Shown here: piece by piece, positions 11,596 through 61,407 of the stretch
How positions within the stretch are numbered: position 1 is the first letter of the stretch
How the letters are laid out: each line of letters begins with the position of its first letter
Source of the DNA: Bacteroidota bacterium
GTDB lineage: Bacteria > Bacteroidota > Bacteroidia > Chitinophagales > BACL12
Assembly (NCBI GenBank): GCA_016706255.1
Contig: JADJJZ010000029.1
Location: forward strand, 554,675-618,674
Length of the DNA: 64,000 bases
Direction: 5' to 3'
Program-made: the position numbers and the translations under genes
The notes under the pieces: generated by a model
Told to the model about the DNA's origin: nothing
The model's input: the letters and a program-made list of their open reading frames with translations, nothing else
Database searches by the model: none

Positions 11596-11613
11596 TTAAG
11601 ATATACATGAATT

Positions 11614-11716: not shown

Positions 11717-13002
11717 TTATTTTTTTATGAAAGAATAACTTGTGCCATCTAACGTTAAAAAATACATGCCACTTTCCAGTTGATGCACATCTACCTTCCC
11801 TCCTGCCGGTAAAGTACCCGAAGCAACAATTTGTTTCGACGCATTCATGATGGTATACTTCCTTTCAACAATTGGATTATTAATTACCAGATAAGTTGTT
11901 GCCGGATTTGGATATAATGCTATTGAATTATTTGAATTTTTTGCTTCAATACATATAATTTCCGATAAATAAGGTTCTTGTAAATCATCGGAACATTGAA
12001 TGCGGTAATAATTAGTTATACTGGATGGATTTTTATGTTCATACACATACATGCCGCTGCCTGAATCATAACCCTGCACACTGCCAATCAGGTTAAAATG
12101 CACGCCATCTGTACTGTGTAATACATTAAAAATTTCAATAGGCGAATCACTAATTGCTTCCCATGATAACGTGTTTTGAGTTGGCTCGGCAATACCCGAT
12201 AAAATAATATCGTCAATGGCTAAAACAGGTAAATCAAAAATCTGATAGCTATACCATTTATTATCTGTTGTGTTAAATAACCACAGTAAATTATTAGCAT
12301 AACTAAATTGATGACTAACGGCAGTAACTGCAGCAGCCGGTAGTGCTGATTCACCTGCGTATGCACATGTAGCTCTGTTTAATAGAATTACTTTTTTTGC
12401 AGTATAATCCAAAATACCATATTCATAACCAGTAACCCCGGTATAAATTACTGCGGTAGTGTTTATTGATCCAAATGTAACGCCGGTTATTGCTGTAGTG
12501 CTTATCAGTGCACCTGTTGTGCGATTATATTTTGATATGCTGCTTGCATTATAAAAAACCACTTCATTATTAACAGGATCATAGGCACCTTCACATTGTG
12601 CGTTTGGACTTAGCGCCCCGGCAAATATTACATTGAATGCGCTAGTAGCATTATTAGCACCATCTAAAACAATTTGCGCCCAACCTATTGCAGAAAAACA
12701 ATTGCGCTCCAACTGATTCGTGTTCGGATTCCACCAAATGCCTCTGGTATCCTGACCGGCAACATCCTGAAACAATAAAGTACCATCATGTTTAAAGGTT
12801 AACAAAGGGTAAGTCGAATTACCAACTCTGGAAGTATAATACAATCCCGTAACCGGATTAAATGCTACTGAGCCGCAGCTGGAAACATCAAGCGGGAATG
12901 CCAGTATTAACGGATTGGTAATAGCTGTAGGGTAAGGAGTTAATTGCGCAAAAATGCTTTTTGTAAAAAGACAATAAGTAGTAATAATGTTAACTTTTTC
13001 AT
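11717..13002 (-). CDS. T9SS C-terminal-domain secreted protein; signal-peptide region is out of frame with the body
   Basis: The body ORF 11717..12844 ends in a CTD (IALYPNPATTYLVIN...GMYFLTLDGTSYSFIKK). Its frame stays open upstream, reading ...CLFTKSIFAQLTPYP. The only ATG plus signal peptide (MKKLTLLLLIVFLQKAFLRN*, ATG at 13002) is in another frame. This implies a 1-nt indel in the T/A runs near 12960-12975. Confidence 0.6.
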
Positions 13003-16941: not shown

Positions 16942-16950
16942 ATGCAGTAG

Positions 16951-34369: not shown

Positions 34370-36303
34370 ATGAAGATTATAGTATTCATACTGGTGTTCA
34401 CAGTTGGCTTTAATACGCTAGCACAAATACCGGAAATCGATTGGCAAAACACTTATGGTGGGTCAAGTTGGGATATTCCCTGGGCTATTATGCAAACACC
34501 TTCAGACAGTGGATATATAGTTGCAGGAGTTACCGAATCTACAGACGGTGATATTTTAGAAAATGCAGGTATTTATGATTATTGGGTAGTTAAATTAGAT
34601 AGTCTTGGTGAAATAATATGGCAAAAAACCTACGGTGGTTCTAGTATAGATGAATGTGAAGAAATTATTTCAACTGGGGATGGCGGCTATTTATTAGTTG
34701 GTTATACCTATTCAGACGATGGTGATATTTCATATTCGCACGGAAGTGTTGATTATTGGATTATTAAAATTAATAGTAGTGGTGAATTGGAATGGGAAAA
34801 AACTTACGGTGGGTCTAAAGGAGATTTTGGACAAAAAGCTATCATGCTGCCTTCAGGTAATTTTGTTATAATTGGCAACTCACAATCTAGCGATGGTGAT
34901 ATTTCAATGCACCACGAGGGTTTTGATACACCAGAAGACATTTGGATTATCGAAATTAATTCTTTTGGTGATTTGATTTGGGAGCATAGCTATGGTTCAT
35001 CAAATGTTGAAAATGCACGTGATATTATTTTAGATATGGATGCTATGGTAGTAACTGGTTATACATATGGGGGTTCAGACGGAGATATTGAGTCCTCTGA
35101 TGGTGCATCCGATTATTGGGTATTTAAAATAAATTTATTTGGGGACATTATTTGGGAGAGCACTTTTGGTGGTGATGATTATGACTATGGTGCATCAATT
35201 GGTCAATTGCAGAATGGCGAATATATTGTTTGCGGAACAACCTCATCTACAGATGGTGATATAATTGATTTTCATGGAGGATATTCGGATGCATTTATAG
35301 TAATTATTGACAGTCTTGGAAATTTAAAAAACTCTTTTTGCTATGGTGGAAGTAATTATGACTCAAGTTATGATTTAAAGATAGTTGACGATAATAGCAT
35401 TTTAATTTCTGGAACTTCCTCTTCAATTGATGGGGACTTAACTGAAAATAATGGTGACGCTGACTTTTGGATAATTATGGTTGATAGCTCAGGTCTTATC
35501 AAATGGCAAAAATCTTTAGGTGGTACATTAGACGAATATGCTATTTGTTTATCACTCACCCAACAACTTAATTCTTATGCTGTGGCTGGTCGCACCCACT
35601 CTTCAGATGTAGATTTAGACTTTAATCATGGTAATTATGATTTCTGGGTAGTTAAATTAGATATCTGTGAAAATAAATATTTCCTTGATAACGACGGCGA
35701 TGGTTTTGGTGATATTACTAATGATTCAAGTGCATGTGATATACCTTTGGGATATGTGATTGATTCAACCGATTGTAATGATTCATTAAATTTTATAAAT
35801 CCTTCAGTTAAAGAAATTTGCAATTACATTGATGATAATTGTAACAGTGAAATTGATGAAGGTCTAACATTAATACTTTCATTTGAAGATTTAGACAGTG
35901 ATAGTTATGGCAATGAATTAATTGATTCTATCGCATGTGAAATTCCTCCGGTTACGTTTTATCCAACACCGACTGCAACGACACCAATCCCGACATCAAC
36001 CCCGGCGCACCGGAACTCCTCAACGGCCTCGACGACGATTGCGACCAAATTGCTGATGAAGGTTTAGCAATAACAGATATTGTAAAAAATACAATAAGTA
36101 TTTTCCCGAATCCGGTAAATAATACATTATTTATTCAATCGGATGCAACACAACAAATAACAATTGTAAATCAATTAGGAGAAGAAATATTATACACAAA
36201 TTTATTTATAGGTTTAAATACAATTTCGGTAGCAGATTTTGCGAGTGGTGTGTATTGGGTGAAAGTGGAAAATGGGGAGATGGTGGTTTGGGTGAAGGAG
36301 TGA
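34370..36303 (+). pseudogene. family-1 T9SS cargo paralog A (propeller-like repeats, 2 Cys-rich MopE-like modules, CTD); single 1-nt deletion
   Basis: The listed ORF 34289..36067 ends in out-of-frame text (CEIPPVTFYPTPTATT...KLLMKV*). At 35948-35949 the sequence is CC, where paralogs have CCC (AATTCCTCCCGGTTACG). Restoring one C reads CEIPPGYVLSNTDCNDTNPDIYPGAPELLNGLDDDCDQIADEGL plus the CTD, ending at TGA 36301-36303. The real start is probably MKIIVFILVF at 34370. Confidence 0.75.
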
Positions 36304-36482
36304 GTGAGGGGCTAGATTGAAACAGCCATTGAACATCCATTGAATCAAAATTGAACAAAATTGAACGAGCCCGATAGCCGTCGGGAGAATCAAAATTGAG
36401 ATTGGTTATTCGCATTAAAATTTTGATTCAATTTTAAAATTTATAAAATTTGAAATGATGTAAACAATATTTACTCAAAATT
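36304..36482. repeat. conserved 3'-flanking module of family-1 gene blocks (ATTGAAC-rich, with an 11-bp-stem hairpin)
   Basis: AGATTGAAACAGCCATTGAACATCCATTGAATCAAAATTGAACAAAATTGAAC... Hairpin GAATCAAAATT (36387-36397) / AATTTTGATTC (36419-36429). Homologous copies at 45909-46100 and 53879-54047. Confidence 0.75.
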
Positions 36483-36543
36483 GTCCTGCATGTTATTTTG
36501 TAGGGACGTATTGCATGCGTCCTTACAAAATAAGAGGCAGGAC
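36483..36543. repeat. type-B long hairpin element
   Basis: GTCCTGCATGTTATTTTGTAGGGACGTATTGCATGCGTCCTTACAAAATAAGAGGCAGGAC. Confidence 0.85.
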
Positions 36544-36777
36544 GCTTACGGAGCGATAATTGAAAATGATTGAAAAAACCAACCTGTCCGAGCGGGGTTC
36601 TTGCCTCAATAAAAAATTATTAATCCGGCACAACCCTGCTATAAATTGGAAGTAGAAATGAACTTGTATGCTGCGAATTAGTTTATCAAAATACTATATT
36701 TAAAAAGTGGTAAGGCCTTCAGAGTTGTATATGCTTTCGAGTGAATAATTGTAAATTTCATTTACATAAAAAAACAT

Positions 36778-36785
36778 TACCTTAG
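36778..36785 (+). promoter_or_regulatory. conserved TAYCTTAG box upstream of paralog B
   Basis: TACCTTAG lies 16 nt before the ATG at 36802. The leader AAAAACATTACCTTAGTAGTAATATAAATTCCATG parallels that of A and G. Confidence 0.35.
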
Positions 36786-36801
36786 TAGTAATATAAATTC
36801 C

Positions 36802-38942
36802 ATGAAAATTTATTTATTTATCCTCTTTGCTGTTTTAAACCTAACTGCACAGGCACAAGAACCTGAAATACAATGGCAAAAGGCATTTGGAGGGGCAGGG
36901 TACGATGATGCATATTCAATTTTCGAAACTTTAGACAATGGGTTTATTGTTAGCGGTGATACTTGGTCAAATGATGGGGATGTAACCGATTATAATGGAT
37001 CAGGTGACTTTTGGATTTTAAAGTTAAGTAGCGATGGAGAAGCTGAATGGAAGGAAACATATGGTGGTAGTGGTTGGGAGGAATCCTACAAAATTATCCA
37101 AACTAGTGACTTAGGATTTTTAGCGGTAGGATTTTCCACTTCAAGCGATGGAGATTTAACACTAAACCAAGGAGATCAAGATTTTTGGATTCTAAAACTT
37201 GATGAATCAGGGGCTATTCAATGGCAAAAAACTTTAGGAGGCTCAGGTTCTGATAGGGCATACTCTGTTCAACAAACAACTGATGGAGGCTATGTGGTTG
37301 CGGGACTTTCTTCGTCATCTGATGGCGATGTTACAGGAAATCATGGCGCTGCTGATTTTTGGGTAATCAAGTTAAATATTTTTGGTGATTTGATTTGGCA
37401 AAAGTCTCTAGGAGGTACACAAAACGATTATGCTAAATCCATTATTGAAATTCCGGGCGAGGGGTTTGTCGTAACTGGATATGTTGAGTCTAATACAGGT
37501 GATGTAACTGGAAATAATGGTGAGAGTGATTATTGGGTTGTGAAGTTATCAGAAGCTGGAGATATTATATGGCAAAAATGTTTTGGGGGTACAAATTTCG
37601 AATTTGCAAATTCATTAGCTCGAACAAGCAACAACGGATTTCTTATTCTTGGTTATACATTATCTGACAATGGTGATGTATCAGGTTTCCATGGTGGTTA
37701 TTCAGATTATTGGCTAATTAATATAGATAGTTCTGGAGCGTTACTTTGGCAAAAATGTTTTGGGGGAACCGCAACAGATCAAGGATTTTCTATTTGCTCA
37801 ACCAATGATAGTTCATATATACTTACCGGGTATTCTGGTTCAAATAATGGTGATGTCACAGGGCATCACGGTGGAGCGTTATACCCTGATTATTGGGTAA
37901 TAAAAATTGATACAATAGGAAATATTGTTTGGCAAAAATCATTAGGTGGCAATTCAAGTGATGAGTCTTTTTCTGTTGTCCAAACTTCAGATACAGGTAT
38001 TGCTATAGCGGGATGGGCTTTTTCTACTGATGGTGATGTTACGGGACATCATGGTGTGGCACTAAATAGAGATTTGTGGATTGTAAAATTAGGCATGCCT
38101 TGTATTGAAAATATGTTTTATGCAGATTTAGATGGTGATGGTTTTGGCAATATTTCATTAGATACATTAGCATGCGAAGCGCCCATTGGTTTTGTAAATG
38201 ATTCCACCGATTGCAACGATTTAAATCCCGAAATCCATCCCACATTAACAGATATTTGTAATGCCATCGATGATAATTGCAACGGATTAACCGATGAAGA
38301 TGCAACATTTGTTACCTATTTCGCAGATATTGATGGAGATACTTTTGGTGATATATTAAATGATTCAACTGCATGTAATGAATTAATCGGTTATGTGTTA
38401 GATAATAGTGATTGTAATGATTCTAATAATGCAATCTACCCCGGCGCCACTGAAATCTGCAACTACCTCGATGATGATTGTGACGGTATTACAGATGATA
38501 ATGTTACCTTCATTCAAAGTTTTATCGATGCTGATAACGACAATTTCGGCAACGCTGATTTTGATTCCATCGCATGCGAAATTCCTCCCGGTTACGTTTT
38601 ATCCAACACCGACTGCAACGACACCAATCCCGACATCTACCCCGGCGCACCGGAACTCCTCAACGGCCTCGACGACGATTGCGACCAAATTGCTGATGAA
38701 GGTTTAGCAATAACAGTTATTGTAAAAATACAATAAGTATTTTCCCGAATCCGGTAAATAATATATTATTTATTCAATCAGATGCAACACAACAAATTAC
38801 AATTGTAAATCAATTAGGAGAAGAAATATTACACACAAATTTATTTATTGGATTAAATACCATTTCGGTAGCAGATTTTGCGAGTGGTGTGTATTGGGTG
38901 AAAGCGGAGGATGGGGAGATGGTGGTTTGGGTGAAGGAGTGA
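36802..38942 (+). pseudogene. family-1 paralog B (about 7-8 propeller-like repeats, 3 Cys-rich modules); CTD out of frame through a 1-nt deletion in an A-run
   Basis: ORF 36802..38736 ends ...LAITVIVKIQ*. The A-run at 38724-38728 is A5, but A6 in copies A, D, G and H (GTAAAAAATAC). Restoring one A reads NTISIFPNPVNNILFIQSD...WVKE, ending at TGA 38940-38942. Confidence 0.75.
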
Positions 38943-38968
38943 GTGTGCGAAATTAAAATGAAAAAATT

Positions 38969-41202
38969 ATGTTTAAAATTCGCTCTATAAAAATATTAAT
39001 GGCATTGAAAATTAATGCTCGTTTTATTTGCATATTATTTTTTGGTTTTTCTTGTCTTTATAATAAAGCAAATGCACAAGCTACAAGTATAGAATGGTCA
39101 AATGCACTTGGCGGTCCGGGTTATGAAGATGCAACGGATGTTATTTATTCTAATGACGGAGGGTATCTGGTGGTTGCTAACTCAGGAGAAATAGGTGGTG
39201 ATGTGACAGGTTTTTATGGTGGAGCAGTAGACATTTGGTTAACTAAATTAGATAGTGCGGGAAATCTTGTTTGGCAGAAAAATTATGGGGGGTCAAATAT
39301 TGAAAAATCCCGTGCAGGTATTGCGACGATAGATGGTGGATATATTATCGTAGGCTATACTGGCTCTGAAGATCATGATGTAAGTTTTAACCATGGACTC
39401 ACCGATGCATGGGTTTTTAAAGTAGATTCAATAGGAAATATAGTATGGGAAAGGTCATATGGTGGTACAAAAAGTGAGCAAGGATGGGCGATTTGTGGAA
39501 CAGATGATGGGAATTTCGTATTCGTAGGATATAGCCATTCAAATAATGGTGATTTGACATCTCATTACGTTACCACGGCTACTTCAGACTTTTGGATTGT
39601 AAAAATCGACAATACAGGTAACATCATTTGGCAAAAATCATACGGCAGTACGGAAGATGACTATGCATATGGTGTTGTGGAGCTATTCAATGGTGATATT
39701 ACAGTCGGTGGAGTAACACAATGGGGAGATGGTGATGTAATAGGATTTCATGGCGGTATTGGGGTTGAAGATGGATGGGTAATTGATTTAGATTCTAATG
39801 GCGCATTGAAATGGAGTAAAGCTTATGGTGGTACAGACTATGACGTTATATGGGATATCACTAAGGCGTCTGATTCCACAATTCACTGTGTTGGACAAGC
39901 AAAATCATTTGATGGAGATATAACAGACCATAAAGGAACTCCGGATGATTATTATTTAGATGATTGCATGTATCTAAGGCTTGATTCTTCTGGGAATTTA
40001 CTTATAGAAAAGTGCTTTGGAGGGTCAGGCAGTGATGTTGGGTTCTCATTAAGTACAACAATGGATGGGACTGTTATATTAGGAGCTAATTCATCAAGTA
40101 ATGATGGAGATGTATCAGGACATCACGGGGGTGAATATACTAGTGATTTTTGGATAGTGAAGCTGGACTCTTTTGCTAATATCGAATGGTCTGTATCGCT
40201 TGGTGGTGATACCGCAGATGCCAGTTATTCCATCATTCAAGCACCTGATTCTGGGTATGTTACTGTTGGAATTTGTGTATCAGAAAATGGTGATGTAGTT
40301 GACCACTATCCAGGCACATTACACTGGGATTCCTGGGTGGTTAAACTCAATAAAACCTGTCCTGGAATTTTATATTATGCTGATAAGGATGGTGATGGTT
40401 ACGGTGATCCAACTGATATACAAATGTTTTGCTCAGATATGGTTGGATATGTATTAAATAATTTAGACTGTAATGATAATGATGCAGAAATTAATCCTAC
40501 AATAGCTGAAATATGTAACACGTTAGACGATAATTGTAATGGTATTGTTGATGAAGGCCTAGCATTGTTTACCCTTTTCGAGATTTAGATGGTGATACTT
40601 TTGGGAATGATACTGATTTTATAACATCGTGTCTTGAATATATTTCAGGTTTTGTTTTAGACTCAACCGATTGTAATGATACTAACGAATTTATTTTTCC
40701 GGGTGCTGAAGAACTCTGCAACTACCTCGATGATGATTGTGATGGTATTACCGATGATAATGTCACCTTCATACAAAGTTTTATTGATGCTGATAACGAC
40801 AATTTCGGAAACCCTGATTTTGATTCTATCGCATGCGAAATTCCTCCCGGTTACGTTTTATCCAACACCGACTGCAACGACACGAATCCCGACATCTACC
40901 CCGGCGCACCCGAACTCCTCAACGGTCTCGACGACGATTGTGATCAAATTGCTGATGAAGGTTTAGCAATAACAGATATTGTAAAACATACAATAAGTAT
41001 TTTCCCGAATCCGGTAAATAATATATTATTTATTCAATCGGATGCAACACAACAAATTACAATTGTAAATCAATTAGGAGAAGAAATATTACAAACAAAT
41101 TTATTTATTGGTTTAAATACCATTTCTGTAGCAGATTTTGCGAGTGGTGTGTATTGGGTGAAAGCGGAGGATGGGGAGATGGTGGTTTGGGTGAAGGAGT
41201 GA
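38969..41202 (+). pseudogene. family-1 paralog C (tandem twin of D); single 1-nt deletion in a T-run
   Basis: ORF 38969..40588 ends LALFTLFEI*. The T-run at 40575-40578 is T4, versus T5 in D at 42835-42839. Downstream sequence is colinear with D (equal length to the stop at 41200-41202) and encodes RDLDGDTFGND..., two more Cys-rich modules and the CTD. Confidence 0.8.
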
Positions 41203-41228
41203 GTGTGCGAAATTAAAATGAAAAAATT

Positions 41229-43463
41229 ATGTTTAAAATTCGCTCTATAAAAATATTAATGGCATTGAAAATTAATGCTCGTTTTATTTGCATATTATTT
41301 TTTGGTTTTTCTTGTCTTTATAATCAAGCAAATGCACAAGCTACAAGCATAGAATGGTCAAATGCACTAGGCGGCCCGGGTTATGAAGATGCAACGGATG
41401 TTATTCAATCTAATGACGGTGGCTATCTCGTTGTTGCTAACTCAAGAGAAGTAGGTGGTGATGTGACAGGTTTTTATGGTGGAGCAGTAGACATTTGGTT
41501 AACTAAATTAGATAGTTCCGGAAATCTTGTTTGGCAAAAAAATTATGGAGGTTCAAATTTTGAACAATCATGTTCCGGTATTGCGACTATAGATGGTGGA
41601 TATATTATAACCGGTTATTCTTCTTCTATGGATTTTGATGTCAGTTTTAATCATGGGCTTTTTGATGCATGGCTTTTCAAAATTGATTCAATTGGTAATT
41701 TACAGTGGGAAAAGTCATATGGAGGTTCCAAGACTGAAATAGCATGGGCAATATGTCCAACTCAAGATGGAAATTTTGTATTCGCAGGATATAGCTATTC
41801 AAATGATGGTGATTTGACATCTCATTACGGTACCACGGCTACTTCAGACTTTTGGATTGTAAAAATCGACAATACAGGTAACATCATTTGGCAAAAATCA
41901 TACGGCAGTACGGAAGATGACTATGCATATGGTGTTGTGGAGCTATTCAATGGTGATATTACAGTCGGTGGAGTAACACAATGGGGAGATGGTGATGTAA
42001 TAGGATTTCATGGCGGTATTGGGGTTGAAGATGGATGGGTAATTGATTTAGATTCTAATGGCGCATTGAAATGGAGTAAAGCTTATGGTGGTACAGACTA
42101 TGACGTTATATGGGATATCACTAAGGCGTCTGATTCCACAATTCACTGTGTTGGACAAGCAAAATCATTTGATGGAGATATAACAGACCATAAAGGAACT
42201 CCGGATGATTATTATTTAGATGATTGCATGTATCTAAGGCTTGATTCTTCTGGGAATTTACTTACAGAAAAGTGCTTTGGAGGGTCAGGCAGTGATGTTG
42301 GGTTCTCATTAAATGCAACAATGGATGGGACTGTTATATTAGGAGCTAATTCATCAAGTAATGATGGAGATGTATCAGGACATCACGGGGGTGAATATAC
42401 TAGTGATTTTTGGATAGTGAAGCTGGACTCTTTTGCTAATATCGAATGGTCTGTATCGCTTGGTGGTGATACCGCAGATGCCAGTTATTCCATCATTCAA
42501 GCACCTGATTCTGGGTATGTTACTGTTGGAATTTGTGTATCAGAAAATGGTGATGTAGTTGACCACTATCCAGGCACATTACACTGGGATTCCTGGGTGG
42601 TTAAACTCAATAAAACCTGTCCTGGAATTTTATATTATGCTGATAAGGATGGTGATGGTTACGGTGATCCAACTGATATACAAATGTTTTGCTCAGATAT
42701 GGTTGGATATGTATTAAATAATTTAGACTGTAATGATAATGATGCAGAAATTAATCCTACAATAGCTGAAATATGTAACACGTTAGACGATAATTGTAAT
42801 GGTATTGTTGATGAAGGCCTAGCATTGTTTACCCTTTTTCGAGATTTAGATGGTGATACTTTTGGGAATGATACTGATTTTATAACATCGTGTCTTGAAT
42901 ATATTTCAGGTTTTGTTTTAGACTCAACCGATTGTAATGATACTAACGAATTTATTTTTCCGGGTGCTGAAGAACTTTGCAACTACCTCGATGATGATTG
43001 TGATGGTATTACCGATGATAATGTCACCTTCATACAAAGTTTTATTGATGCTGATAATGACAATTTCGGAAACCCTGATTTTGATTCCATCGCCTGCGAA
43101 ATTCCATCCGGTTACGTTTTATCCAACACCGACTGCGACGACACCAATCCCGACATCTACCCCGGCGCACCCGAACTCCTCAACGGCCTCGATGATGATT
43201 GCGACCAAATTGCTGATGAAGGTTTAGCAATAACAGTTATTGTAAAAAATACAATAAGTATTTTCCCGAATCCGGTAAATAATATATTATTTATTCAATC
43301 GGATGCAACACAACAAATAACAATTGTAAATCAATTAGGAGAAGAAATATTACAGACAAATTTATTTATTGGATTAAATACGATTTCGGTAGCCGATTTT
43401 GCGAGTGGTGTGTATTGGGTGAAAGTGGAGGATGGGGAGATGGTGGTTTGGGTTAAGGAGTGA
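41229..43463 (+). CDS. family-1 paralog D: the only uninterrupted copy (signal peptide, propeller-like repeats, 3 Cys-rich MopE-like modules, T9SS CTD)
   Basis: 744-aa ORF. Repeats of the form W-Q-K-x-Y-G-G-S...DGGY...G-x-T-x-S-x-D-G-D-V...D-x-W-(I/V)-V-K-(L/I)-D. Cys-rich modules such as DCDDTNPDIYPGAPELLNGLDDDCDQIADEG. CTD ISIFPNPVNNILFIQSD...GVYWVKVEDGEMVVWVKE. Confidence 0.85.
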   Translation: MFKIRSIKILMALKINARFICILFFGFSCLYNQANAQATSIEWSNALGGPGYEDATDVIQSNDGGYLVVANSREVGGDVTGFYGGAVDIWLTKLDSSGNLVWQKNYGGSNFEQSCSGIATIDGGYIITGYSSSMDFDVSFNHGLFDAWLFKIDSIGNLQWEKSYGGSKTEIAWAICPTQDGNFVFAGYSYSNDGDLTSHYGTTATSDFWIVKIDNTGNIIWQKSYGSTEDDYAYGVVELFNGDITVGGVTQWGDGDVIGFHGGIGVEDGWVIDLDSNGALKWSKAYGGTDYDVIWDITKASDSTIHCVGQAKSFDGDITDHKGTPDDYYLDDCMYLRLDSSGNLLTEKCFGGSGSDVGFSLNATMDGTVILGANSSSNDGDVSGHHGGEYTSDFWIVKLDSFANIEWSVSLGGDTADASYSIIQAPDSGYVTVGICVSENGDVVDHYPGTLHWDSWVVKLNKTCPGILYYADKDGDGYGDPTDIQMFCSDMVGYVLNNLDCNDNDAEINPTIAEICNTLDDNCNGIVDEGLALFTLFRDLDGDTFGNDTDFITSCLEYISGFVLDSTDCNDTNEFIFPGAEELCNYLDDDCDGITDDNVTFIQSFIDADNDNFGNPDFDSIACEIPSGYVLSNTDCDDTNPDIYPGAPELLNGLDDDCDQIADEGLAITVIVKNTISIFPNPVNNILFIQSDATQQITIVNQLGEEILQTNLFIGLNTISVADFASGVYWVKVEDGEMVVWVKE

Positions 43464-43557
43464 GTTGGGAAAATACCCCAATTGTGAATACCAAGCCCTG
43501 TGTGAACGGCGTCTCGCCTGTCATTAGTTTTTATTAAATTTTATCACAAGTATTTAC

Positions 43558-43565
43558 TACCTTAG
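43558..43565 (+). promoter_or_regulatory. conserved TAYCTTAG box upstream of paralog E
   Basis: TACCTTAG lies 19 nt before the ATG at 43585. Confidence 0.3.
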
Positions 43566-43584
43566 TAGTCCCGACGAAAAATAC

Positions 43585-45908
43585 ATGAAATCACTAATTT
43601 TTATCTACATGTTTATTTTTATAGTGCAAGCAAGATTTGCTCAAGCACCGGATATTATTTGGCAAAAATCTTTTGGTGGAAGTGATTACGACCAACCTGC
43701 TAAAATTATAACTGCTCCAGATTCTAGTTTTTTATTATTTGGTGACACGCGATCGGTGGATTTTGATATTGAGAATAATCATGGTTCACGAGATATTTGG
43801 TTATTAAACATTGATGTCAGTGGAAATTTACTTTGGGAAAATACTTATGGCGGTTCGAGCATTGATTATGGTAGATCGTTAACGATTGGTAATGATAATC
43901 AAGTATTAATGACAGGTTATACAAATTCGATAGACGGAGATGTCTCTGAATTTTATGGTATTTATGATTATTGGACTGTCGCCTCTGATTTATTGGGTAC
44001 AATTGTGTGGGGAAAAAATTTTGGTGGTAGTGAATACGATGGATCCAGAGGGATAAGTGAACTTTTAGATGGATATTTGATAATAGGTGACTCTAAATCA
44101 TCCGATGGTGATGTATTAGGGTTACATGGAATTACTAATTCAGATTTTTGGGTGATCAAAATATCTAATGAAGGCGACCTTATTTGGCAAAAATGCTATG
44201 GTTCCAATAACACAGAGCAACCAAACTCAATAGTTAAAACATTAGAAAATGAGTATATAATTGCTGGGACCACCTTAGGAGAAGGGGGCGACGTGACAGG
44301 TAATCATGGATCTACTGATATCTGGGTAATAAAAATTGATTCAGTAGGGAATTTAATTTGGCAAAAATGTTATGGTGGATCTGACGTTGATGGTATAAGT
44401 AAGATTTTAAATACACCTGATGGCGGATTTATACTCAGTGGTGAAACATATTCAAATAATGGTGATGTTTCAGGTTTTCATGGTGGAATAAATGATGGAT
44501 GGATAATAAAAATTGACAGCATTGGAAATATAGAATGGCAAAAGTGTTATGGCGGCTCTGGTAGTGATGAAATTTATTCTATTATTTTACTTGATGACGG
44601 TAATTTTTTATTCGGAGGTCGGTCTACTTCTGCAGACGGAGACTTAACTGAAAATAAGGATGGAAATGATTGTTGGTTAGTTAAAATTAACCCAGAAGGC
44701 GATATAATTTGGCAAAAATCGTTTGGAGGATATGATGAAGATGTAATTTATGATATTGTTGAAGCTGAAAATGGGGATATTATTTTTTTAGCCGAAAGTC
44801 TTTCTTCTGATGGTGATTTAACTTTAAATATGGGAAATTGGGATTTTTGGGTTGTGCGATTAGGTTATTGTACAACCAAATATTTTGAGGACACCGATGG
44901 CGATGGTTACGGAGATATTTCTTCAGATACATTATCTTGCGAATTACCCACGGTTATGTTTTAGACTCCACCGATTGCAACGATTTAAATCCCGAAATCC
45001 ATCCAACATTAACAGATATTTGTAATGTGATTGATGATAATTGTAACGGATTAACAGATGAAGATGCAACATTTGTTACCTATTTCGCAGATATTGATGG
45101 TGATACTTTTGGTGATGTATTAAATGATTCAACTGCTTGTAATGAATTAATTGGTTATGTGTTAGATAATACCGATTGCAACGATTTAAATCCCGAAATT
45201 CATCCAACATTAACAGATATTTGTAATGCCATTGATGATAATTGTAACGGATTAACAGATGAAGATGCAACATTTGTTACTTATTTTGCAGATATTGATG
45301 GAGATACTTTTGGTGATATATTAAATGATTCAACTGCATGTAATGAATTAATCGGTTATGTGTTGGATAATACTGATTGCAACGATACCAATAATGCAAT
45401 CTTCCCCGGCGTCACCGAACTCTGCAACTACCTCGATGATGATTGTGACGGAATAACAGATGATAATGTCACCTTCATTCAAAGTTTTATTGATGCCGAC
45501 AACGACAATTTCGGAAACCCTGATTTTGATTCCATCGCATGCGAAATTCCACCCGGCTACGTTTTATCCAACACCGACTGCAATGACACCAATCCCGACA
45601 TCTACCCCGGCGCACCGGAACTCCTCAACGGCCTCGACGACGATTGCGACCAAATTGCTGATGAAGGTTTAGCAATAACAGATATTGTAAAACATACAAT
45701 AAGTATTTTCCCGAATCCGGTAAATGCGATTTTATTTATTCAATCGGATGCGATACATAAAATTACTATTGTAAATCAATTAGGAGAAGAAATATTATAC
45801 ACCAATTTATTTATCGGTATAAATACCATTTCTGTAGCAGATTTTGCGAGTGGTGTGTATTGGGTGAAAGCGGAGGATCTGGAGATGGTGGTTTGGGTGA
45901 AGGAGTGA
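43585..45908 (+). pseudogene. family-1 paralog E (propeller-like repeats, 4 Cys-rich modules, CTD); single 1-nt deletion
   Basis: ORF 43585..44964 ends SCELPTVMF*. ORF 44937..45908 continues the same protein in another frame. Adding one G to the GG at 44952-44953 reads CELPTGYVLDSTDCNDLNPEIHP. Confidence 0.75.
44973..45374 (+). repeat. 2 x 201-bp in-frame tandem duplication inside paralog E (one Cys-rich module plus linker)
   Basis: GATTGCAACGATTTAAATCCCGAAAT... recurs at 44973 and 45174, and the next unit begins at 45375. The translations DCNDLNPEIHPTLTDICN(V/A)IDDNCNGLTDEDATFVTYFADIDGDTFGD(V/I)LNDSTACNELIGYVLDNT are nearly identical. There is a single copy in B (~38208-38408). Confidence 0.85.
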
Positions 45909-46100
45909 GTTGGGGGGTAAGATTGAAACAGCCATTGAGCATCCATTGAATCAAAATTGAACAAGATTGCACAAAATTGAACAAAATTGAACCATTCAGA
46001 TTGCTATCAGGAGAATTAAAATTGAGGTTGGATTTTCGCATTAAAATTTTGATTCAATTTTAAAATTTGAAATGATGTAAACAATATTTTCCTCAAAAAT
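45909..46100. repeat. conserved 3'-flanking module (copy 2)
   Basis: Homologous to 36304-36482 and 53879-54047. Confidence 0.75.
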
Positions 46101-46161
46101 GTCATGCATGTTATTTTGTAGGGACGTATTGCATGCGTCCTTACAAAATAATTTGAAGGAC
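46101..46161. repeat. type-B long hairpin element
   Basis: GTCATGCATGTTATTTTGTAGGGACGTATTGCATGCGTCCTTACAAAATAATTTGAAGGAC. Confidence 0.8.
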
Positions 46162-46194
46162 GTTTACGAAGTGATAAATTAAAGATTTAATCTT

Positions 46195-46330
46195 TTACAA
46201 ATACAGTTGTAGTATACAAATTCCCTGTATACAAGTAAATTAAATATAAACCAGCGCTTAATTCAGAAGCATCAAAATTAAATGGTGATTGAATTTTATT
46301 GATTAATTCCAATTTAACGAATATTGACTT
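46195..46330 (-). pseudogene. 3' remnant (CTD end only) of a minus-strand family-1 gene homologous to paralog I
   Basis: 46195-46300 aligns with 54141-54250. On the minus strand it reads ...SAGLYLIYLYTGNLYTTTVFVKD*. No upstream gene body remains, because paralog-unrelated gene F starts at 46484. Confidence 0.7.
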
Positions 46331-46483
46331 CTTTAAAAAAATTACTTTTCTGATTTATAACTCTTACTATATCAATTCAGCAGTTGACGTAACCATATTA
46401 ATTACTGTGAAATTGGAAAGTTCTTACTTGAAAAACAAACTTTTTCACATTAAATTTGAGTGAATTTGCTAGATTCTTTTTAA

Positions 46484-49060: not shown

Positions 49061-49262
49061 AAGTGGTTATTTATGAAAATATTTAATTACGACTCAAACA
49101 TGTGTTTAACTTATCCAACAGATAGAGTTCCGTATGTGATATTTTTTTGCAATGGGGAGACCACATAAATACAAATTAGCGAAATTAATACCATTTGTAA
49201 GACGTAATTAACTTGTATGCTGCGAATTAATTTATCAAAATTCCATATCTAGCAAGACTGCT

Positions 49263-49301
49263 GGACGCATGCAATTCGTCCCTACAGCCATAGGCCAATT
49301 G
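49263..49301. repeat. type-A hairpin element, right half only (truncated)
   Basis: GGACGCATGCAATTCGTCCCTACAGCCATAGGCCAATTG. The left arm is absent. This marks the left boundary of the duplication shared with 33947 onward. Confidence 0.7.
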
Positions 49302-49369
49302 CTCAATTAGGTTGCAAAAGCACAATTTGAAAAAAGGGCATTTCGCAATTTGACTTTTCACTCAAAATT

Positions 49370-49430
49370 GTCCTGCCTGTTATTTTGTAGGGACGTATTG
49401 CATGCGTCCTTACAAAATAAGAGGCAGGAC
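49370..49430. repeat. type-B long hairpin element
   Basis: GTCCTGCCTGTTATTTTGTAGGGACGTATTGCATGCGTCCTTACAAAATAAGAGGCAGGAC. Confidence 0.85.
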
Positions 49431-49661
49431 AGTTTAAAGTTGAGGATGACAATGATTTTAAAAATGTAAATGCTTGTCCGAGATGCGTTGCGTTTCTAAA
49501 AAAAGATTATTCTTAAACAAGCCTGCAAAAAATTAGAACGATGATGCACCTATCTACTGCAAATAAATTCATCATACTTCCGTGTCCCAAATGCTTATTT
49601 TTTTATGAGAATTTATTACAAATGGTTAAAATGTGGCTTTCACAGTTACCTCAAAAAACAT

Positions 49662-49669
49662 TATCTTAG
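49662..49669 (+). promoter_or_regulatory. conserved TAYCTTAG box upstream of paralog G
   Basis: TATCTTAG lies 16 nt before the ATG at 49686, in a context identical to paralog A. Confidence 0.35.
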
Positions 49670-49685
49670 CTTTAATATTATCTCC

Positions 49686-51618
49686 ATGAAGATTATAGTA
49701 TTCATCTTGGTGTTTACACTTAGCTTTAGTGCGGATGCTCAGGTGCCTGAAATCGAGTGGCAGCGGAACTATGGCGGTTCTGGTTGGGACATTCCTTTTA
49801 AAATTTTATTTACTCCATCAGATAGTGGTTATATAGTTGCAGGCGTTTCAGGGTCTGATGATGGTGATCTTACAGAAAGCAATGGCTATGATGATTATTG
49901 GGTGGTTAAACTGGATAGCGTAGGAAACATTTTGTGGCAAAACACTTATGGAGGCTCAAGTTTTGATCAATGCAATGATATAGTGTTAACATCGGACGGA
50001 GGTTATTTATTGGCCGGATATATTTATTCAAATGATGGCGATATTACATTAAATCATGGAGACGTAGATTATTGGGTGGTTAAAATCAGTGTAACAGGTG
50101 TAATCGAGTGGCAAAAATCATTTGGTGGTGTTGAAACCGATTTTGCGAACCATATACTTACATTACCATCTGGTAATTTTATGATTATTGGCGGGTCAAG
50201 TTCTAACGACGGGGATGTTTTAGAACACCACAATACTCCTACGCTGACAAACGATATTTGGGTAATTGAAATTGACCCTATTGGCAATTTACTTTCGAGT
50301 AAATGTTATGGTTCCTATTTTGATGAAAGAGCCGGGGATTTAATTTTATTAGATGATGGCATTGCGATAGTAGGAACCACATTTGGTTCAGGTGGTGATG
50401 TTACCTCTCATGATGGTGCCACAGATTTTTGGTTATTTAAAATTGACTTCGATGGCAATATAATCTGGGATCGTTCATTTGGGAGGAGATGATTATGATT
50501 GGGGATATTCAATAGGTAAAAAAACAAACGGAGATTTAGTTATTTGTGGTATTACTTCTTCAGTCGATGGTGATATTATTGATTATAATGGAGGGACAGC
50601 TGATGCTTTGGTAGTTATAGTAGATAGTATAGGTAATTTAGAAAGTTCGCATTGTTTCGGTGGTAGTTTGTATGATGAAAGCGATGATCTAATTGTAATT
50701 GATAATAATCAAATTCTAATATGTGGTTCAACAGCCTCAATTGATGGTGATATGACAGAAAATAATGGGAGTAATGATTTTTGGATAGCCATGATTGATA
50801 CAATAGGAAATGTTCATTGGCAAAAATCACTCGGCGGTTCAATAGATGAAGCAGCTTATGCAATTGCTACAACTCCAGATGAAAATTCGTATATAACCGC
50901 AGGGCGTAGTCACTCATCTGATGTTGACGTCGAAGCAAACTTTGGGAGTTATGATTTTTGGGTAGTAAAATTAAATATTTGTGAAACGCTGTATTTTTTG
51001 GATGCAGACGGTGATGGATTTGGTGATATTACTAATGATTCAAGTGCATGTGATATACCTTTGGGATATGTTATTGATTCAACCGATTGTAATGATTCAT
51101 TAAATTTTATAAATCCTTCAGTAAAAGAAATTTGCAATTACATTGATGATAATTGCAATGGTGAAATTGATGAAGGTCTAACATTAATACTTACATTTGA
51201 AGATTTAGACAGTGATAGTTATGGCAATGAATTAATTGATTCTATCGCATGCGAAATTCCACCCGGTTACGTTTTATCCAACACCGACTGCAACGACACC
51301 AATCCCGACATCTACCCCGGCGCCCCCGAACTCCTCAACGGCCTCGACGACGATTGCGACCAAATAGCTGATGAAGGTTTACCTACAACAGATATTGTAA
51401 AAAATACAATAAGTATTTTCCCGAATCCGGTAAATAATATATTATTTATTCAATCAGATGCAACACAACAAATAACAATTGTAAATCAATTAGGAGAAGA
51501 AATATTACACACAAATTTATTTATTGGATTAAATACCATTTCGGTAGCAGATTTTGCGAGTGGTGTGTATTGGGTGAAAGTGGAAAATGGGGAGATGGTG
51601 GTTTGGGTGAAGGAGTGA
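49686..51618 (+). pseudogene. family-1 paralog G (A-like ends, diverged core); single 1-nt insertion
   Basis: ORF 49605..50492 ends WDRSFGRR*. ORF 50479..51618 continues as GGDDYDWGYSIGKK. The run at 50481-50483 is GGG, and GG would read SFGGDDYDWG, matching the family repeat. The real start is probably MKIIVFILVF at 49686. Confidence 0.75.
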
Positions 51619-51644
51619 TTGTGCGAAATTAAAATGAAAAAATT

Positions 51645-53878
51645 ATGTTTAAAATTCGCTCTATAAAAATATTAATGGCATTGAAAATTAATGCTCGTTT
51701 TATTTGCATATTATTTTTGGTTTTTCTTGTCTTTATAATAAAGCAAATGCACAAGCTACAAGTATAGAATGGTCAAATGCACTAGGCGGTCCGGATTATG
51801 AAGATGCAACAGATGTTATTCAATCTAATGACGGAGGCTATCTTGTGGTTGCTAACTCAGGAGAAGTAGGTGGTGATGTGACTGATTTTTATGGTGGAGC
51901 AGTAGATATATGGTTGACTAAATTAGATAGTTCAGGAAACCTTATTTGGCAGAAAAATTATGGGGGGTCAAGTATTGAAAAATCCCGTGCAGGAATTGCG
52001 ACGATAGATGGTGGATATATTATCGTAGGCTATACTGGCTCTGAAGATCATGATGTTAGTTTTAACCATGGACTCACCGATGCATGGGTTTTTAAAGTGG
52101 ATTCAATAGGAAATATAGTATGGGAAAGGTCATATGGTGGTACAAAAAGTGAGCAAGGATCGGCGATTTGTGGAACAGATGATGGGAATTTCGTGTTCGT
52201 AGGATATAGCCATTCAAATAATGGTGATTTGACATCTCATTATGGTACTGCAGAGACTTCCGATTATTGGATTGTAAAAATCGACAATACGGGTAATATC
52301 ATTTGGCAAAAATCATACGGCAAGTCGGAGGATGACTATGCATATGGTGTTGTGGAGCTATTCAATGGTGATATTACAGTCGGTGGCGTAACACAATGGG
52401 GAGATGGTGATGTAATAGGATTTCATGGCGGTATAGGGATTGAAGATGGATGGGTAATTGATTTAGATTCTAATGGAGCATTGAAATGGAGCAAAGCATT
52501 TGGTGGTACAGACTATGATGTTATATGGGATATCACTAAGGCGTCTGACTCTACAATTCACTGTGTTGGACAAGCAAAATCATTTGATGGAGATATTACC
52601 GACCATAAAGGAACTCCGGATGATTATTATTTAGATGATTGCATGTATTTGCAGCTTGATACAATGGGAAATTTACTAATGGAGAAATGTTTTGGTGGCA
52701 CAAGCGGCGATGCTGGATTTTCAATTTGTAAGACATTTGATAGTGGAGAAGTGATAGCCTGTAATTCTGCGAGCGATGATGTGGATGTGGCAGGCCATCA
52801 TGGTGGGACAGACCTTTACGATTATTGGATTATAAAATTAGATTCTTTAGCAAACATTGAGTGGAATATTAATATTGGAGGAATTTCATCTGATGAAAGT
52901 TATTCGATTATTCAACTTACAGATTCTGGATTCTTAGCAGTTGGTCTAAGTAATTCAATAGATGGAGATGTCTTAGACCACTACCCCGGACCTTCCAACT
53001 GGGATTCCTGGGTGGTTAAACTCAATAAAACCTGTCCGGGTATTTTATATTATGCAGATAAAGATGGTGATGGTTTTGGTGATCCAACTGATATACAAAT
53101 GTTTTGCTCAGATATGGTTGGATATGTATTAAATAATTTAGACTGTAATGATAATGATGCTGAAATTAATCCTACAATAGCTGAAATATGCAACACGATA
53201 GATGATAATTGTAATGGTATTGTTGACGAAGGTCTTGCGTTGTTTACGCTCTATCGAGATTTAGATGGAGATACTTTTGGGAATGATACTGATTTTATAA
53301 CATCGTGTCTTGAATATATTTCAGGTTTTGTTTTAGACTCAACAGATTGTAATGATACCAATGCGTTAATTTTTCCGGGTGCTGAAGAACTCTGCAACTA
53401 CCTCGATGATGATTGTGATGGTATTACAGATGATAATATCACTTTCATACAAAGTTTTATTGATGCTGACAACGACAATTTCGGCAACGCTGATTTTGAT
53501 TCCATCGCATGCGAAATTCCACCCGGTTACGTTTTATCCAACACCGACTGCAACGACACCAATCCCGACATCTACCCCGGCGCCCCCGAACTCCTCAACG
53601 GCCTCGACGACGATTGCGACCAAATTGCTGATGAAGGTTTAGCAATAAGAGATATTGTAAAAAATACAATAAGAATTTTCCCGAATCCGGTAAATGCGAT
53701 TTTATTTATTCAATCGGATGCAACACATCAAATTACAATTGTAAATCAATTAGGAGAAGAAATATTGCACATAAATTTATTTATAGGATTAAATACAATT
53801 TCGGTAGCAGATTTTGCGAGTGGTGTGTATTGGGTGAAAGCGGAAAATGGGGAGATGGTGGTTTGGGTGAAGGAGTGA
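51645..53878 (+). pseudogene. family-1 paralog H (C/D-like); 1-nt deletion in the signal-peptide T-run
   Basis: The ATG at 51645 encodes MFKIRSIKILMALKINARFICIL, as in C and D. The T-run at 51714-51718 is T5 versus T6 in C and D, so this frame stops after 40 codons. The body ORF 51704..53878 can start only at a TTG, giving MHIIFGFSCLYNKANAQ, which lacks the charged n-region. Confidence 0.7.
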
Positions 53879-54047
53879 GTTGGGGGTAAGATTGAAACAG
53901 CCATTGAACAGAATTGAACAAAATTGAACAAAAATTGAACCATTCAGATTGCTATCAGGAGAATTAAAATTGAGGTTGGATTTTCGCATTAAAATTTTGA
54001 TTCAAATTTAAAATTTGAAATGATGTAAACAATATTTCCTCAAAATT
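53879..54047. repeat. conserved 3'-flanking module (copy 3)
   Basis: Homologous to 36304-36482 and 45909-46100. Confidence 0.75.
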
Positions 54048-54107
54048 GTCCTGCATGTTATTTTGTAGGGACGTATTGCATGCGTCCTTACAAATAATAG
54101 GCAGGAC
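54048..54107. repeat. type-B long hairpin element
   Basis: GTCCTGCATGTTATTTTGTAGGGACGTATTGCATGCGTCCTTACAAATAATAGGCAGGAC. Confidence 0.85.
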
Positions 54108-54140
54108 GGTTACGAAGCGATAAATTAATGATTTAATCTT

Positions 54141-55889
54141 TTACAAATACAGTTGTAGTATACAAATTCCTGCATACAGGTAAATTAAATATAAACCTGC
54201 GCTTAATTCAGAAGCATCAAAATTAAATGGTGTTTGAATTTTATTTTGTTGAAAAATTAAATCCCCATTTATATTATAAATAGTAAGTAAAGGCGTATTT
54301 ATATTTTCGAATTGAATAGTCAGCTCATTGGTGGCCGGGTTTGGAAAAACTGATAAACCTATCAATTCTGTTTCTATGATTTCCAGGCCATCATCTGCAA
54401 TTTGATTGCAGTCATCATCAATGCCATTTAAAATTTCGGTTGCTCCTGGGTTAATAAACGGGTTGTTATCATCACAATCACCACCTACTAAAACAAATCC
54501 ATCATTAAGTGTGCATGAATAACTATAATTATCGCTATCGCCATAAGTATCATCATCTTGGTCAGGATATACAAGCATTTGGTCACATTCTTTATCCAAC
54601 TTAAATATCCAAACATCAGGATATTCAGAGTCGCCGTAATGGGATGCAATATCTCCATCAGTTGATCTACAAACACCTTGCACAACATAGCCATTACCCA
54701 ATTGTTGAATGTTGTAAAAGTTTTCATTGTTATAGCCACCAAAACAATTTGACCACTTAATAATACCTGCTGTGTCCATTTCAACAATCCATATATCAAC
54801 GGGCTTTGCAGAATAATGGTTACCAAAAACATCGCCATTATGTGGGGAAGCAGTAAAGCCAGATACGATAAACGAGGAATCATTGATAGGTAATAATTGT
54901 TGCCCTTCATCACCACTGGTTCCACCGTAACATTTTGACCATAATAAATTACCAATCGAATCAATTTTACCTACCCACATATCCTGCCATAATGGTGCAG
55001 AGTGATTTCCAGATATATCTCCATCATCTGAATAAGTATAACCGGAAAAGTAGTATTCATTTTCACCAATTTCAGCTATTGAATAAATTAAGTCGTAGTC
55101 AGAGCCCCCATAAAGTTTCACCCAAACCAGTTCACCTGCTTCTGATAGCTCAATAATATATCCGTCCCAAGATGGTAATTCAGGTGATTTTGTGTATCCT
55201 GTTAACAAATAATTACCATCAACATTTTGCATTACTGAAAAGCTTTCGTCATCATTTTCAGTCCCTAAAACTTTAATGAATAAGAGCTCTCCTTCTTGTG
55301 AAATTTTTCCAAAAACAATATCAACATAATCAGCTACTCCGAAATGTGTTCCTATCAATCCATCATCTGATGTACTTAAGCCAGCAAAATAAATTTCGTT
55401 TTCATTATTTATTCCAATATCTATTATGGCGTCATCATAAGAACCCCCAACTGATAATTCCCATTCGAGTAATCCATTTGAGTCAACTTTGATTACCCAC
55501 ATATCTGAAAATCCATAATTAATTGAAATATCGCCACCTTCTGAAACTGTGTACCCGGCAATAACAAAACCACCATCACTAGTTTGTACCATATCTTTAG
55601 GAATATCTGAGGATTCCCCTCCATAAGTATAATCCCATAGTAGTTCACCATTTTTGTCAATTTTATAAATCCAATAATCAGTTTGTTCTGGCTCACTACT
55701 CACATCATAATCGTTAGAATTAGTTTGTGCTGCAATTACCATCGAAGAATCTTCCAAAATTACAAACCCTGCGGGCCAGTCATAAAAACTACCACCATAA
55801 TTTTTCTCAAATGAAAGATTATAAGGCTGGGCATTTGATATTAAAACCGCAATCAGAGTAAAAACTATAAGTAAAAGTAACGGCTTCAA
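54141..55889 (-). CDS. family-1 paralog I (minus strand; propeller-like repeats, 1 Cys-rich module, CTD); last CTD strand apparently frameshifted
   Basis: 582-aa ORF ending ...GLYLIYLYAGICILQLYL*. The plus-strand run at 54169-54170 is CC, versus CCC in remnant 46223-46225. With one extra base the end becomes YAGNLYTTTVFVKD*, with the stop at 54133-54135. That is a canonical CTD terminus. Confidence 0.75.
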   Translation of the reverse strand: MKPLLLLIVFTLIAVLISNAQPYNLSFEKNYGGSFYDWPAGFVILEDSSMVIAAQTNSNDYDVSSEPEQTDYWIYKIDKNGELLWDYTYGGESSDIPKDMVQTSDGGFVIAGYTVSEGGDISINYGFSDMWVIKVDSNGLLEWELSVGGSYDDAIIDIGINNENEIYFAGLSTSDDGLIGTHFGVADYVDIVFGKISQEGELLFIKVLGTENDDESFSVMQNVDGNYLLTGYTKSPELPSWDGYIIELSEAGELVWVKLYGGSDYDLIYSIAEIGENEYYFSGYTYSDDGDISGNHSAPLWQDMWVGKIDSIGNLLWSKCYGGTSGDEGQQLLPINDSSFIVSGFTASPHNGDVFGNHYSAKPVDIWIVEMDTAGIIKWSNCFGGYNNENFYNIQQLGNGYVVQGVCRSTDGDIASHYGDSEYPDVWIFKLDKECDQMLVYPDQDDDTYGDSDNYSYSCTLNDGFVLVGGDCDDNNPFINPGATEILNGIDDDCNQIADDGLEIIETELIGLSVFPNPATNELTIQFENINTPLLTIYNINGDLIFQQNKIQTPFNFDASELSAGLYLIYLYAGICILQLYL

Positions 55890-55953
55890 TTTAGTTTAGT
55901 TTAATGTATTAACGTTAAGCATTATAAATTATTAGAATTTCGGTATTTTAGGT

Positions 55954-56841: not shown

Positions 56842-57020
56842 TTTGTTTTAATGTTTGGACTTACTTACCAAAAATTCAAGAAAGTCTAATTAGGATAGTT
56901 TAAAAATAGGGTTTTATTCGGGTTTACAATATGCTAATTTGTAGGGTATAAAAATTCTGCTTCGGCTGGAATTTATTTAATGTTTAATCACCGAATTTAA
57001 TTGGATTTATCACCCAATCG

Positions 57021-57079
57021 CAATTTGCCTGTGGCTGCAGGGACGCATGCAATTCGTCCCTACATCCACTGGCCATTTG
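57021..57079. repeat. type-A long hairpin element
   Basis: CAATTTGCCTGTGGCTGCAGGGACG / CGTCCCTACATCCACTGGCCATTTG. Confidence 0.8.
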
Positions 57080-59359: not shown

Positions 59360-59421
59360 ACCTTATCAAAAAAATCTTATTAAATAATTATTAAACAATA
59401 CAGTTCCAATTTTTAAATAAA

Positions 59422-60334: not shown

Positions 60335-60403
60335 AATTGTGAAAATAAAATTATCATAATTGAAAATAAGATGTTAAATTAAAATTTAATAAAACGAAAT
60401 CAT

Positions 60404-61318: not shown

Positions 61319-61407
61319 AATTAAGTGAAATAATAATACCTTCAACAAAAGAACAAACAGACAACTAACCCTTGAATCACAAAAAAAACATATTATGGTA
61401 TTCTGCA

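Follow-up and report, generated by a model that had tools for sequence, protein, structure and literature searches.

Cargo proteins of the type IX secretion system (T9SS) with a type A sorting domain and MopE motifs share a common layout in Chitinophagales and Saprospiraceae, in which a signal peptide is followed by about eight repeats and by PF11617 motifs, of which there may be one or several, and the tail is formed by PF18962. The same layout is seen in the eight paralogs (family 1; copies A to E and G to I) that are the subject of this work. They lie in a 64,000-nucleotide stretch of contig JADJJZ010000029.1 from a Bacteroidota bacterium (the window), and they differ from the described cargo only in forming a tandem eight-copy array with a homogenized 3' module. 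Seven of them are interrupted by a frameshift. In the slipped-strand contingency loci of Neisseria, Haemophilus, and Campylobacter, the frame of a surface-protein family is likewise set by run length, but the tracts are typically at least 7 nt long and polymorphic, whereas those of family 1 measure 2-6 nt and have a fixed in-frame length in other assemblies. In silent-cassette variation (Neisseria pilE/pilS and Borrelia vlsE/vls), one open copy also stands beside non-expressible relatives, and signs of gene conversion are present; the cassettes, however, are partial and devoid of starts and promoters, whereas the family-1 copies are complete genes broken by one base and intact in other assemblies. 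The locus further resembles short-read-polished assemblies of nanopore R9.4.1 reads, in which 1-nt errors in runs, mostly deletions, split genes, are absent from Illumina assemblies, and persist where alignment is ambiguous or coverage is low (PMC8812927; PMC9262707); as for those errors, a sister assembly carries different private ones. The errors left in long-read assemblies are mainly of the homopolymer-length type. R9.4.1 consensus indels give rise to frameshifts (PMC9262707), and errors located in repeats outlast short-read polishing (PMC8812927). At low depth most polishers add errors, and the bulk of the polishing gain is reached by 25x (10.1101/2024.03.07.584013).

The original prediction had offered three explanations for the broken copies: reversible switching or a reservoir of silent donor cassettes, very recent parallel inactivation, and consensus or polishing error caused by cross-mapping of reads among near-identical paralogs. 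Comparison with other assemblies supported error: judged from the sequences, the seven frameshifts are very probably not mutations but consensus errors that remained in a nanopore metagenome assembly of low coverage. This reading was adopted because five of the seven lesions were found in this assembly alone, because non-coding repeats are littered with indels as well, and because a sister metagenome-assembled genome (MAG) has frameshifts of its own.

The state of the eight copies was examined by three-frame translation and flank searches. As predicted, a single 1-nt homopolymer indel is present in each of A, B, C, E, G, H, and I, D alone is intact, and all coordinates and tract lengths were confirmed. 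The frame jumps exactly at each site, and beyond it the old frame stays open to the normal, paralog-like stop. Repair by a single base yielded uninterrupted open reading frames (ORFs) of 585-774 aa in all seven broken copies. All lesions fall in runs of 2-6 nt, and six are deletions, the sole insertion being that in G; family 1 has only three 7-nt runs, none of which is a lesion site. The claim that no copy has a second lesion held for frame-breaking changes, none of which was found in any family-1 copy by ORF reconstruction after repair, but not strictly, as H also contains a compensated +1/-1 indel pair (52322..52325, + strand). The pair is private to the window (GGCAAGT versus GGCAGTA) and turns ST into KS, giving SYGKSEDDY where paralogs C and D and the independent contig L001 have SYGSTEDDY.

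Copy A (34370..36303, + strand) is a T9SS cargo gene of 644 aa after repair. From the listed ORF start at 34289, which lies 27 codons upstream of the signal peptide, 671 aa are obtained, and the orthologue is called as 644 aa on the short-read contigs L003, L007, and L008. Its lesion consists of CC at 35948..35949 (+) in place of CCC, the form present in five paralogs. Copy B (36802..38942, +) measures 713 aa after repair, and its 644-aa fragment exactly matches the NCBI protein MBK7443823. The lesion is A5 at 38724..38728 (+) for the A6 found in A, D, and H, and it is flanked by 47 + 69 nt identical to D. Copy C (38969..41202, +; 744 aa after repair; 539-aa fragment identical to NCBI protein MBK7443825) has T4 at 40575..40578 (+) where D has T5. 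This is the sole difference from D within ~660 nt, with exact flanks of 519 and 137 nt, and a global alignment of C with D showed a single gap in the coding part. The intact copy D (41229..43463, +) encodes 744 aa and matches MBK7443827 exactly; it combines a repeat region at the N terminus with three Cys-rich motifs of the MopE type and a C-terminal T9SS sorting domain.

Copy E (43585..45908, +) reaches 774 aa after repair, and a 459-aa fragment of it equals MBK7443828 (IPI65_20580). It has GG at 44952..44953 (+), where GGG restores CELPTGYVLDSTDCND; the flanks are unique, and the site has no near-identical paralog. The same absence of a near-identical paralog applies to the site in copy G (49686..51618, +; after repair an ORF of 670 aa, of which 643 aa follow the real start), in which GGG at 50481..50483 (+) replaces the expected GG. 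In copy H (51645..53878, +; 744 aa after repair), T5 at 51714..51718 (+) stands for the T6 of C and D, with 94 + 65 nt of flanking sequence identical to both. Copy I (54133..55889, - strand; 585 aa after repair) is affected at 54169..54170 (-), where the + strand reads CC and CCC is expected as at 46223-46225, in what remains of the 3' part of an I-like gene (46187..46300, -). This lesion alters just the last ~10 residues, within the sorting domain.

The same tracts were then compared in independent assemblies of the species, which are 98-99.8% identical to the window: Illumina/MEGAHIT contigs from Swedish wastewater treatment plants (PRJEB14051), another ENA assembly, and JGI sample 3300030384. 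The sister MAG JADJSJ was consulted in addition. Seven contigs (L002-L008; from five Swedish runs, the other ENA assembly, and the JGI sample) cover A plus B and/or the 3' end of E plus the neighboring gene F, and L004 also covers most of G. At lesion A, CCC was present in all four spanning contigs (L002, L003, L007, and L008). Lesion B was A6 in 7/7 contigs (L002-L008), the intact 713-aa orthologue P0124 being encoded on seven contigs. The single contig that spans lesion G, L004, has GG, and it differs from G by 0 substitutions over 1716 nt, so that the extra G is the only difference. For H, contig L001 (PRJEB14051) has T6 and an intact 744-aa orthologue (P0001); it is 99.76% identical to window positions 51428-53946 over 2519 nt, and the six differences are two single-nucleotide polymorphisms (SNPs) and four one-base indels, namely lesion H, the +1/-1 pair, and one intergenic indel. 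For I, the JGI contig L164 has the extra base and an intact 585-aa orthologue (P0188), and at this site the sister MAG reads in frame too. The identity of L164 to 54028-57075 is 99.54%, with seven SNPs and six indel events in 3 kb. The tracts were thus in frame at all five sites at which the comparison suggested in the original prediction could be made. Five of the seven lesions (A, B, G, H, and I) are private to this assembly, and 0/7 are confirmed elsewhere. In the 90% protein clusters of the B, C, and E fragments, the truncated forms came only from this MAG. No comparator for lesions C and E, and none for copy D, was found in any other assembly, the best hit to E being 48% identical in the protein search and 44% in the JGI metagenome scan.

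The excess of indels is not confined to coding sequence. Relative to L164, the window differs by an intergenic indel at 54092 and by four indels of 1-2 nt (56909, 56923, 56990, and 57011) in an intergenic repeat element that recurs upstream of A, B, G, and other genes. At all five positions the sister MAG has the same reading as L164, so these indels are private to the window. At 46377, upstream of F, a C present in six contigs (L002-L007) is missing from the window. The unique DNA of positions 1-18410 showed 53-128 SNPs against independent contigs and only one window-private indel (12965), and no private coding indel was detected against other contigs at 23.5-33.4 kb. The one comparable lesion that had been suspected outside the paralog families, at 12960-13000, was placed at 12965..12969 (- strand; T5 for T6 on the coding strand, A5 on the + strand) and confirmed by the longer tract in L089-L092. 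It removes the signal peptide (MKKLTLLLLIVF...) of a T9SS protein that does not belong to family 1 (gene 11717-12844) and that is 428 aa long in four other assemblies. The concentration of frameshifts in family 1, for which a rough estimate of 1e-3 had been given, is real: the probability that at least seven of eight fall in the 16.8 kb of family-1 coding sequence is 5e-4 with the whole window as reference and 4e-3 when the reference is limited to cross-checkable stretches. The ~1:1 ratio of indels to SNPs in coding and non-coding repeats alike is the signature of consensus error and not of mutation plus selection. Selection for knockouts would leave the spacers untouched.

The origin of the window is in keeping with such errors. 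The NCBI proteins that match the B, C, and E fragments and D exactly are listed under 'MAG: Bacteroidetes bacterium', with locus tags IPI65_* and a contig of 1,082,966 bp. The source of the window would be the MAG EsbE_18-Q3-R3-47_BAT3C.161 (JADJJZ) of an uncultured Chitinophagales bacterium, which has 30 contigs, Illumina and nanopore coverages of 9.7x and 16.5x, respectively, and a strain heterogeneity of 66.7. The EsbE MAG and JADJSJ both belong to species cluster 174_1 in Supplementary Data 3 of Singleton et al. 2021 (PMC8012365). Besides JADJSJ, the EsbE MAG is the one high-quality member of this cluster in the table consulted, and the assignment agrees with how far apart the MBK accession numbers of the two MAGs lie, at about 4,100 proteins per MAG over 218 accessions in between. 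JADJSJ is Hade_18-Q3-R52-61_BATAC.786, with Illumina and nanopore coverages of 4.6x and 11.6x, and is placed in Chitinophagales, f__BACL12, g__UBA7236 (PMC8012365). For this Danish activated-sludge set, R9.4.1 reads were assembled with CANU 1.8 (correctedErrorRate 0.105) and polished first with Racon and then twice with Medaka (r941_flip213), and the final polish was one round of Racon with Illumina reads and the option --include-unpolished (PMC8012365). If the window comes from exactly this MAG, as we infer, it is the product of a long-read assembly with limited short-read polishing.

The sister MAG documents what this pipeline leaves behind. Its contig JADJSJ010000028, found with the SDR protein of the window, is 98.9% identical to the window over 18.4 kb. 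Private 1-base indels in JADJSJ split a TonB-type receptor of 725 aa into 583 + 123 aa, a methyltransferase of 392 aa into 198 + 212 aa, an OmpA/TSP3 gene of 388 aa into 127 + 253 aa, a 304-aa T9SS gene into 208 + 88 aa, and a 295-aa gene into 79 + 229 aa, and they divide copy I into four pieces. At the breaks in the TonB-type receptor, the OmpA/TSP3 gene, and the 304-aa T9SS gene, third-party contigs side with the window. The errors in JADJSJ include GG/GGG runs (27678), and the error spectrum of the pipeline therefore covers the short tracts that had looked atypical of nanopore data. Both edges of the family-1 cluster also coincide with contig breaks in JADJSJ (the starts of JADJSJ010000028, our L097, and of JADJSJ010000014, our L103), implying that the array is hard to assemble at such depth. 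The first ~840 nt of L097 have no match to copy A, and the copy that precedes I on L103 has a C-like 3' end (98.6%).

The errors could have accumulated in the cluster as follows. In a tandem array, long-read consensus and short-read alignment would both be unreliable, since the copies share 88-96% identity, exact repeats extend to 519 nt, intergenic elements recur, and the strains are heterogeneous, so that 1-nt indels may survive or arise more often there than in unique DNA. At the sites in C, H, and B, true reads would fit the error-free paralog better than the faulty draft, and the site would be starved of correction. The lesions in A, E, and G may instead reflect low depth, strain heterogeneity, and a mixing of paralog reads under the 10.5% overlap tolerance of CANU. 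Read stealing by an error-free paralog was considered as the sole mechanism and rejected, as it fits C, H, and B and not A, E, and G. The part of the original prediction that named cross-mapping among near-identical paralogs as the cause thus held for C, H, and B only; E and G, with exact repeat flanks of at most 10 nt, lie in unique sequence, and multi-mapping of short reads cannot account for them. C and E, for which no second assembly could be consulted, presumably follow the same rule as the other five.

Several observations weigh against consensus error. The seven lesions occupy seven different copies, an arrangement with P = 0.019 under random placement, and one lesion per copy is the pattern expected from selection for a single knockout per gene. 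In contrast to typical R9.4.1 errors, which affect longer homopolymers, four of the lesions sit in tracts of just 2-3 nt, and E and G lie in unique sequence; the short tracts weigh less because errors of this kind also occur in the sister MAG. Copies C and E are absent from every other assembly and thus lack a comparator. The comparators for B and H were fetched via intact proteins, which biases them toward intact alleles, whereas those for A, G, and I came from contigs retrieved on other grounds and are free of that bias. The comparators represent other populations (Sweden and other samples) and not the same DNA, and the EsbE MAG as the source of the window, together with its coverage, is deduced.

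These observations are what a real, very recent parallel inactivation could draw on, in which seven of eight paralogs in one strain were each hit by an independent 1-nt indel, possibly under selection to lose exposed T9SS cargo, e.g. in escape from phages or grazers. One lesion in each of seven copies, the lack of a second frame-breaking lesion in any of them, the concentration in one gene family, and the fact that C and E are contradicted by no other assembly all fit this scenario. It would, however, require seven indels while G gained no and H two substitutions, so that G and H differ from their orthologues almost solely by indels. Equally many private indels lie in the non-coding DNA of the same segment, beyond the reach of selection for knockouts. 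A comparable lesion affects the unrelated gene at 12965, ordinary genes of the sister MAG, a product of the same pipeline, are split by many frameshifts private to it, and lesion I changes only the end of its protein. Ratios of pN/pS for repaired copies against their orthologues were 0.18-0.58, values that agree with constraint but come with too few differences to separate very recent loss from artefact. Parallel inactivation is therefore regarded as quite unlikely. Programmed variation, either on/off switching by tract slippage or an expressed copy D accompanied by silent donor cassettes for gene conversion, would explain why D alone is open; the 91-96% identical 3' module does attest to gene conversion or recombination in the array, and tract lengths at five sites differ between this assembly and others. 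Against it, as the original prediction had argued for slipped-strand phase variation, the tracts are of 2-6 nt, no hypermutable tract of ~7-8 nt or more is involved, and the available 7-nt runs are unused by the lesions. Length polymorphism among samples was likewise not seen: four contigs share the in-frame length at A and seven at B. Nor do the copies resemble donors that lack a start, promoter, or 5' end and serve a single expression site, as every one is complete with its own start, signal peptide, and spacer and is no promoterless cassette. Five of the seven sites are in frame elsewhere, and thousands of homologues are ordinary intact genes of 700-800 aa. Programmed variation is extremely improbable.

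A mixture was also weighed, in which most lesions are artefacts and one or two, likeliest C or E, are real mutations that turned copies of a strain-specific expansion into pseudogenes. None of the seven short-read contigs contains C, D, and E, which may represent a recent, weakly constrained expansion, and neither the C nor the E lesion has a comparator. No positive evidence for the mixture was obtained, however, and the C lesion is the only difference in the ~660 nt shared with D, where short reads align to the error-free paralog and an error goes uncorrected; we consider the mixture highly improbable. Taken by itself, the proposition that the lesions are real, i.e. that one strain near-simultaneously lost seven of eight tandem T9SS paralogs through a selected sweep or a low-rate reversible short-tract switch, is very unlikely.

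Apart from the frameshifts, family 1 has the features of ordinary secreted cargo. Pfam models detected three PF11617 stretches in D (E = 3.2e-29) and one in I, and the PF18962 sorting domain in both (E = 3e-10 and 1.3e-10, respectively); most neighbors, including F, also end in PF18962. The N termini of family-1 translations are hydrophobic and end in AQA or AQ, and the N-terminal two thirds consist of about eight repeats of ~50 residues (GG..D..DGD..W..K) without a Pfam model. Each copy starts at its own ATG or TTG, encodes a signal peptide, and is preceded by a spacer of ~30-550 nt. With PF18962 and an N-terminal signal peptide, the products are predicted T9SS type A cargo, and with PF11617 repeats they are putative metal-binding motif proteins related to MopE. 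Homologues of 700-800 aa occur, intact, by the thousands in Bacteroidota metagenomes and are labeled 'MopE-related' or 'T9SS type A sorting domain-containing'. The repaired A, B, C, E, G, and I had no exact sequence in the protein collection, a scan of GTDB representatives with D returned only relatives of at most 43% identity, and the contig index held no exact match to the proteins D, F, DapD, and the TonB-type receptor or to the C fragment.

The 3' ~390-500 nt are 91-96% identical across copies, whereas the N-terminal parts fall to ~50% protein identity. This homogenized module, which comprises the final MopE motif and the sorting domain, was located in the seven + strand copies at 35922-36306, 38561-38945, 40820-41205, 43081-43467, 45526-45912, 51236-51621, and 53496-53882. 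Near-identity at the 3' end next to divergent N termini indicates concerted evolution of the MopE/sorting-domain module, which may have proceeded by gene conversion.

On all seven contigs L002-L008, the B gene is joined directly to the spacer and F, and C, D, and most of E are missing. The last ~300 nt of that B gene are E-like (98-100%), and the ~450 nt before them are B-like (window positions 38206-38944 and 45171-45995). This B/E hybrid reflects either copy-number variation by unequal recombination in the 3' module or a systematic collapse of short reads. The repeated element upstream of A (34168) and G (49484) is swapped relative to the short-read contigs: the variant upstream of A in the window, GGGATGGGG, is the one upstream of G in the contigs and vice versa. 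Either the paralogous spacers have exchanged sequence, or the two variants were mixed when the reads were assembled. A tandem motif of the TTGAACA(A)AA type downstream of the copies (36335-36345 and 53908) differs by 9-21 nt between the window and other assemblies.

Further differences were noted elsewhere in the window. At position 701, an intergenic A5 versus A4 with adjacent SNPs is common to the two nanopore MAGs from Denmark, whereas five other assemblies lack it, and it is probably real strain variation. In family 2 (58900-61330), the middle copy (~59400-60350) shifts frame twice; on L103 of the sister MAG, family 2 is ~950 nt shorter and seemingly lacks this copy. Family 2 thus appears to show the same error tendency as family 1. 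Three candidates for further broken genes were rejected: 23647-25089 and 25073-25984 were recognized by Pfam as a complete CCA/poly(A) polymerase and a complete MiaA, 2939-3649 and 3688-5895 as complete separate genes, including an OmpA-family protein, and a short aquaporin has a normal N terminus.

If the lesions were real, they would mean that a wastewater bacterium had lost an entire array of surface proteins in a coordinated manner. The pattern is, however, most likely an assembly artefact and not a feature of the organism, and its biological importance is small for that reason. The real biology is a tandem, partly homogenized array of T9SS cargo genes whose copy number appears to vary between strains, nothing out of the ordinary among Bacteroidota. 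The B, C, and E fragments have been deposited as separate proteins ('putative metal-binding motif-containing protein' and 'hypothetical protein') and are probable errors already present in nr. Frameshifts in public nanopore MAGs of this generation, although these are labeled "high-quality", are concentrated in paralogous and repeated genes, and pseudogene counts, calls of silent cassettes or phase variation, and protein-family catalogues derived from such MAGs will be distorted precisely in surface-protein arrays.

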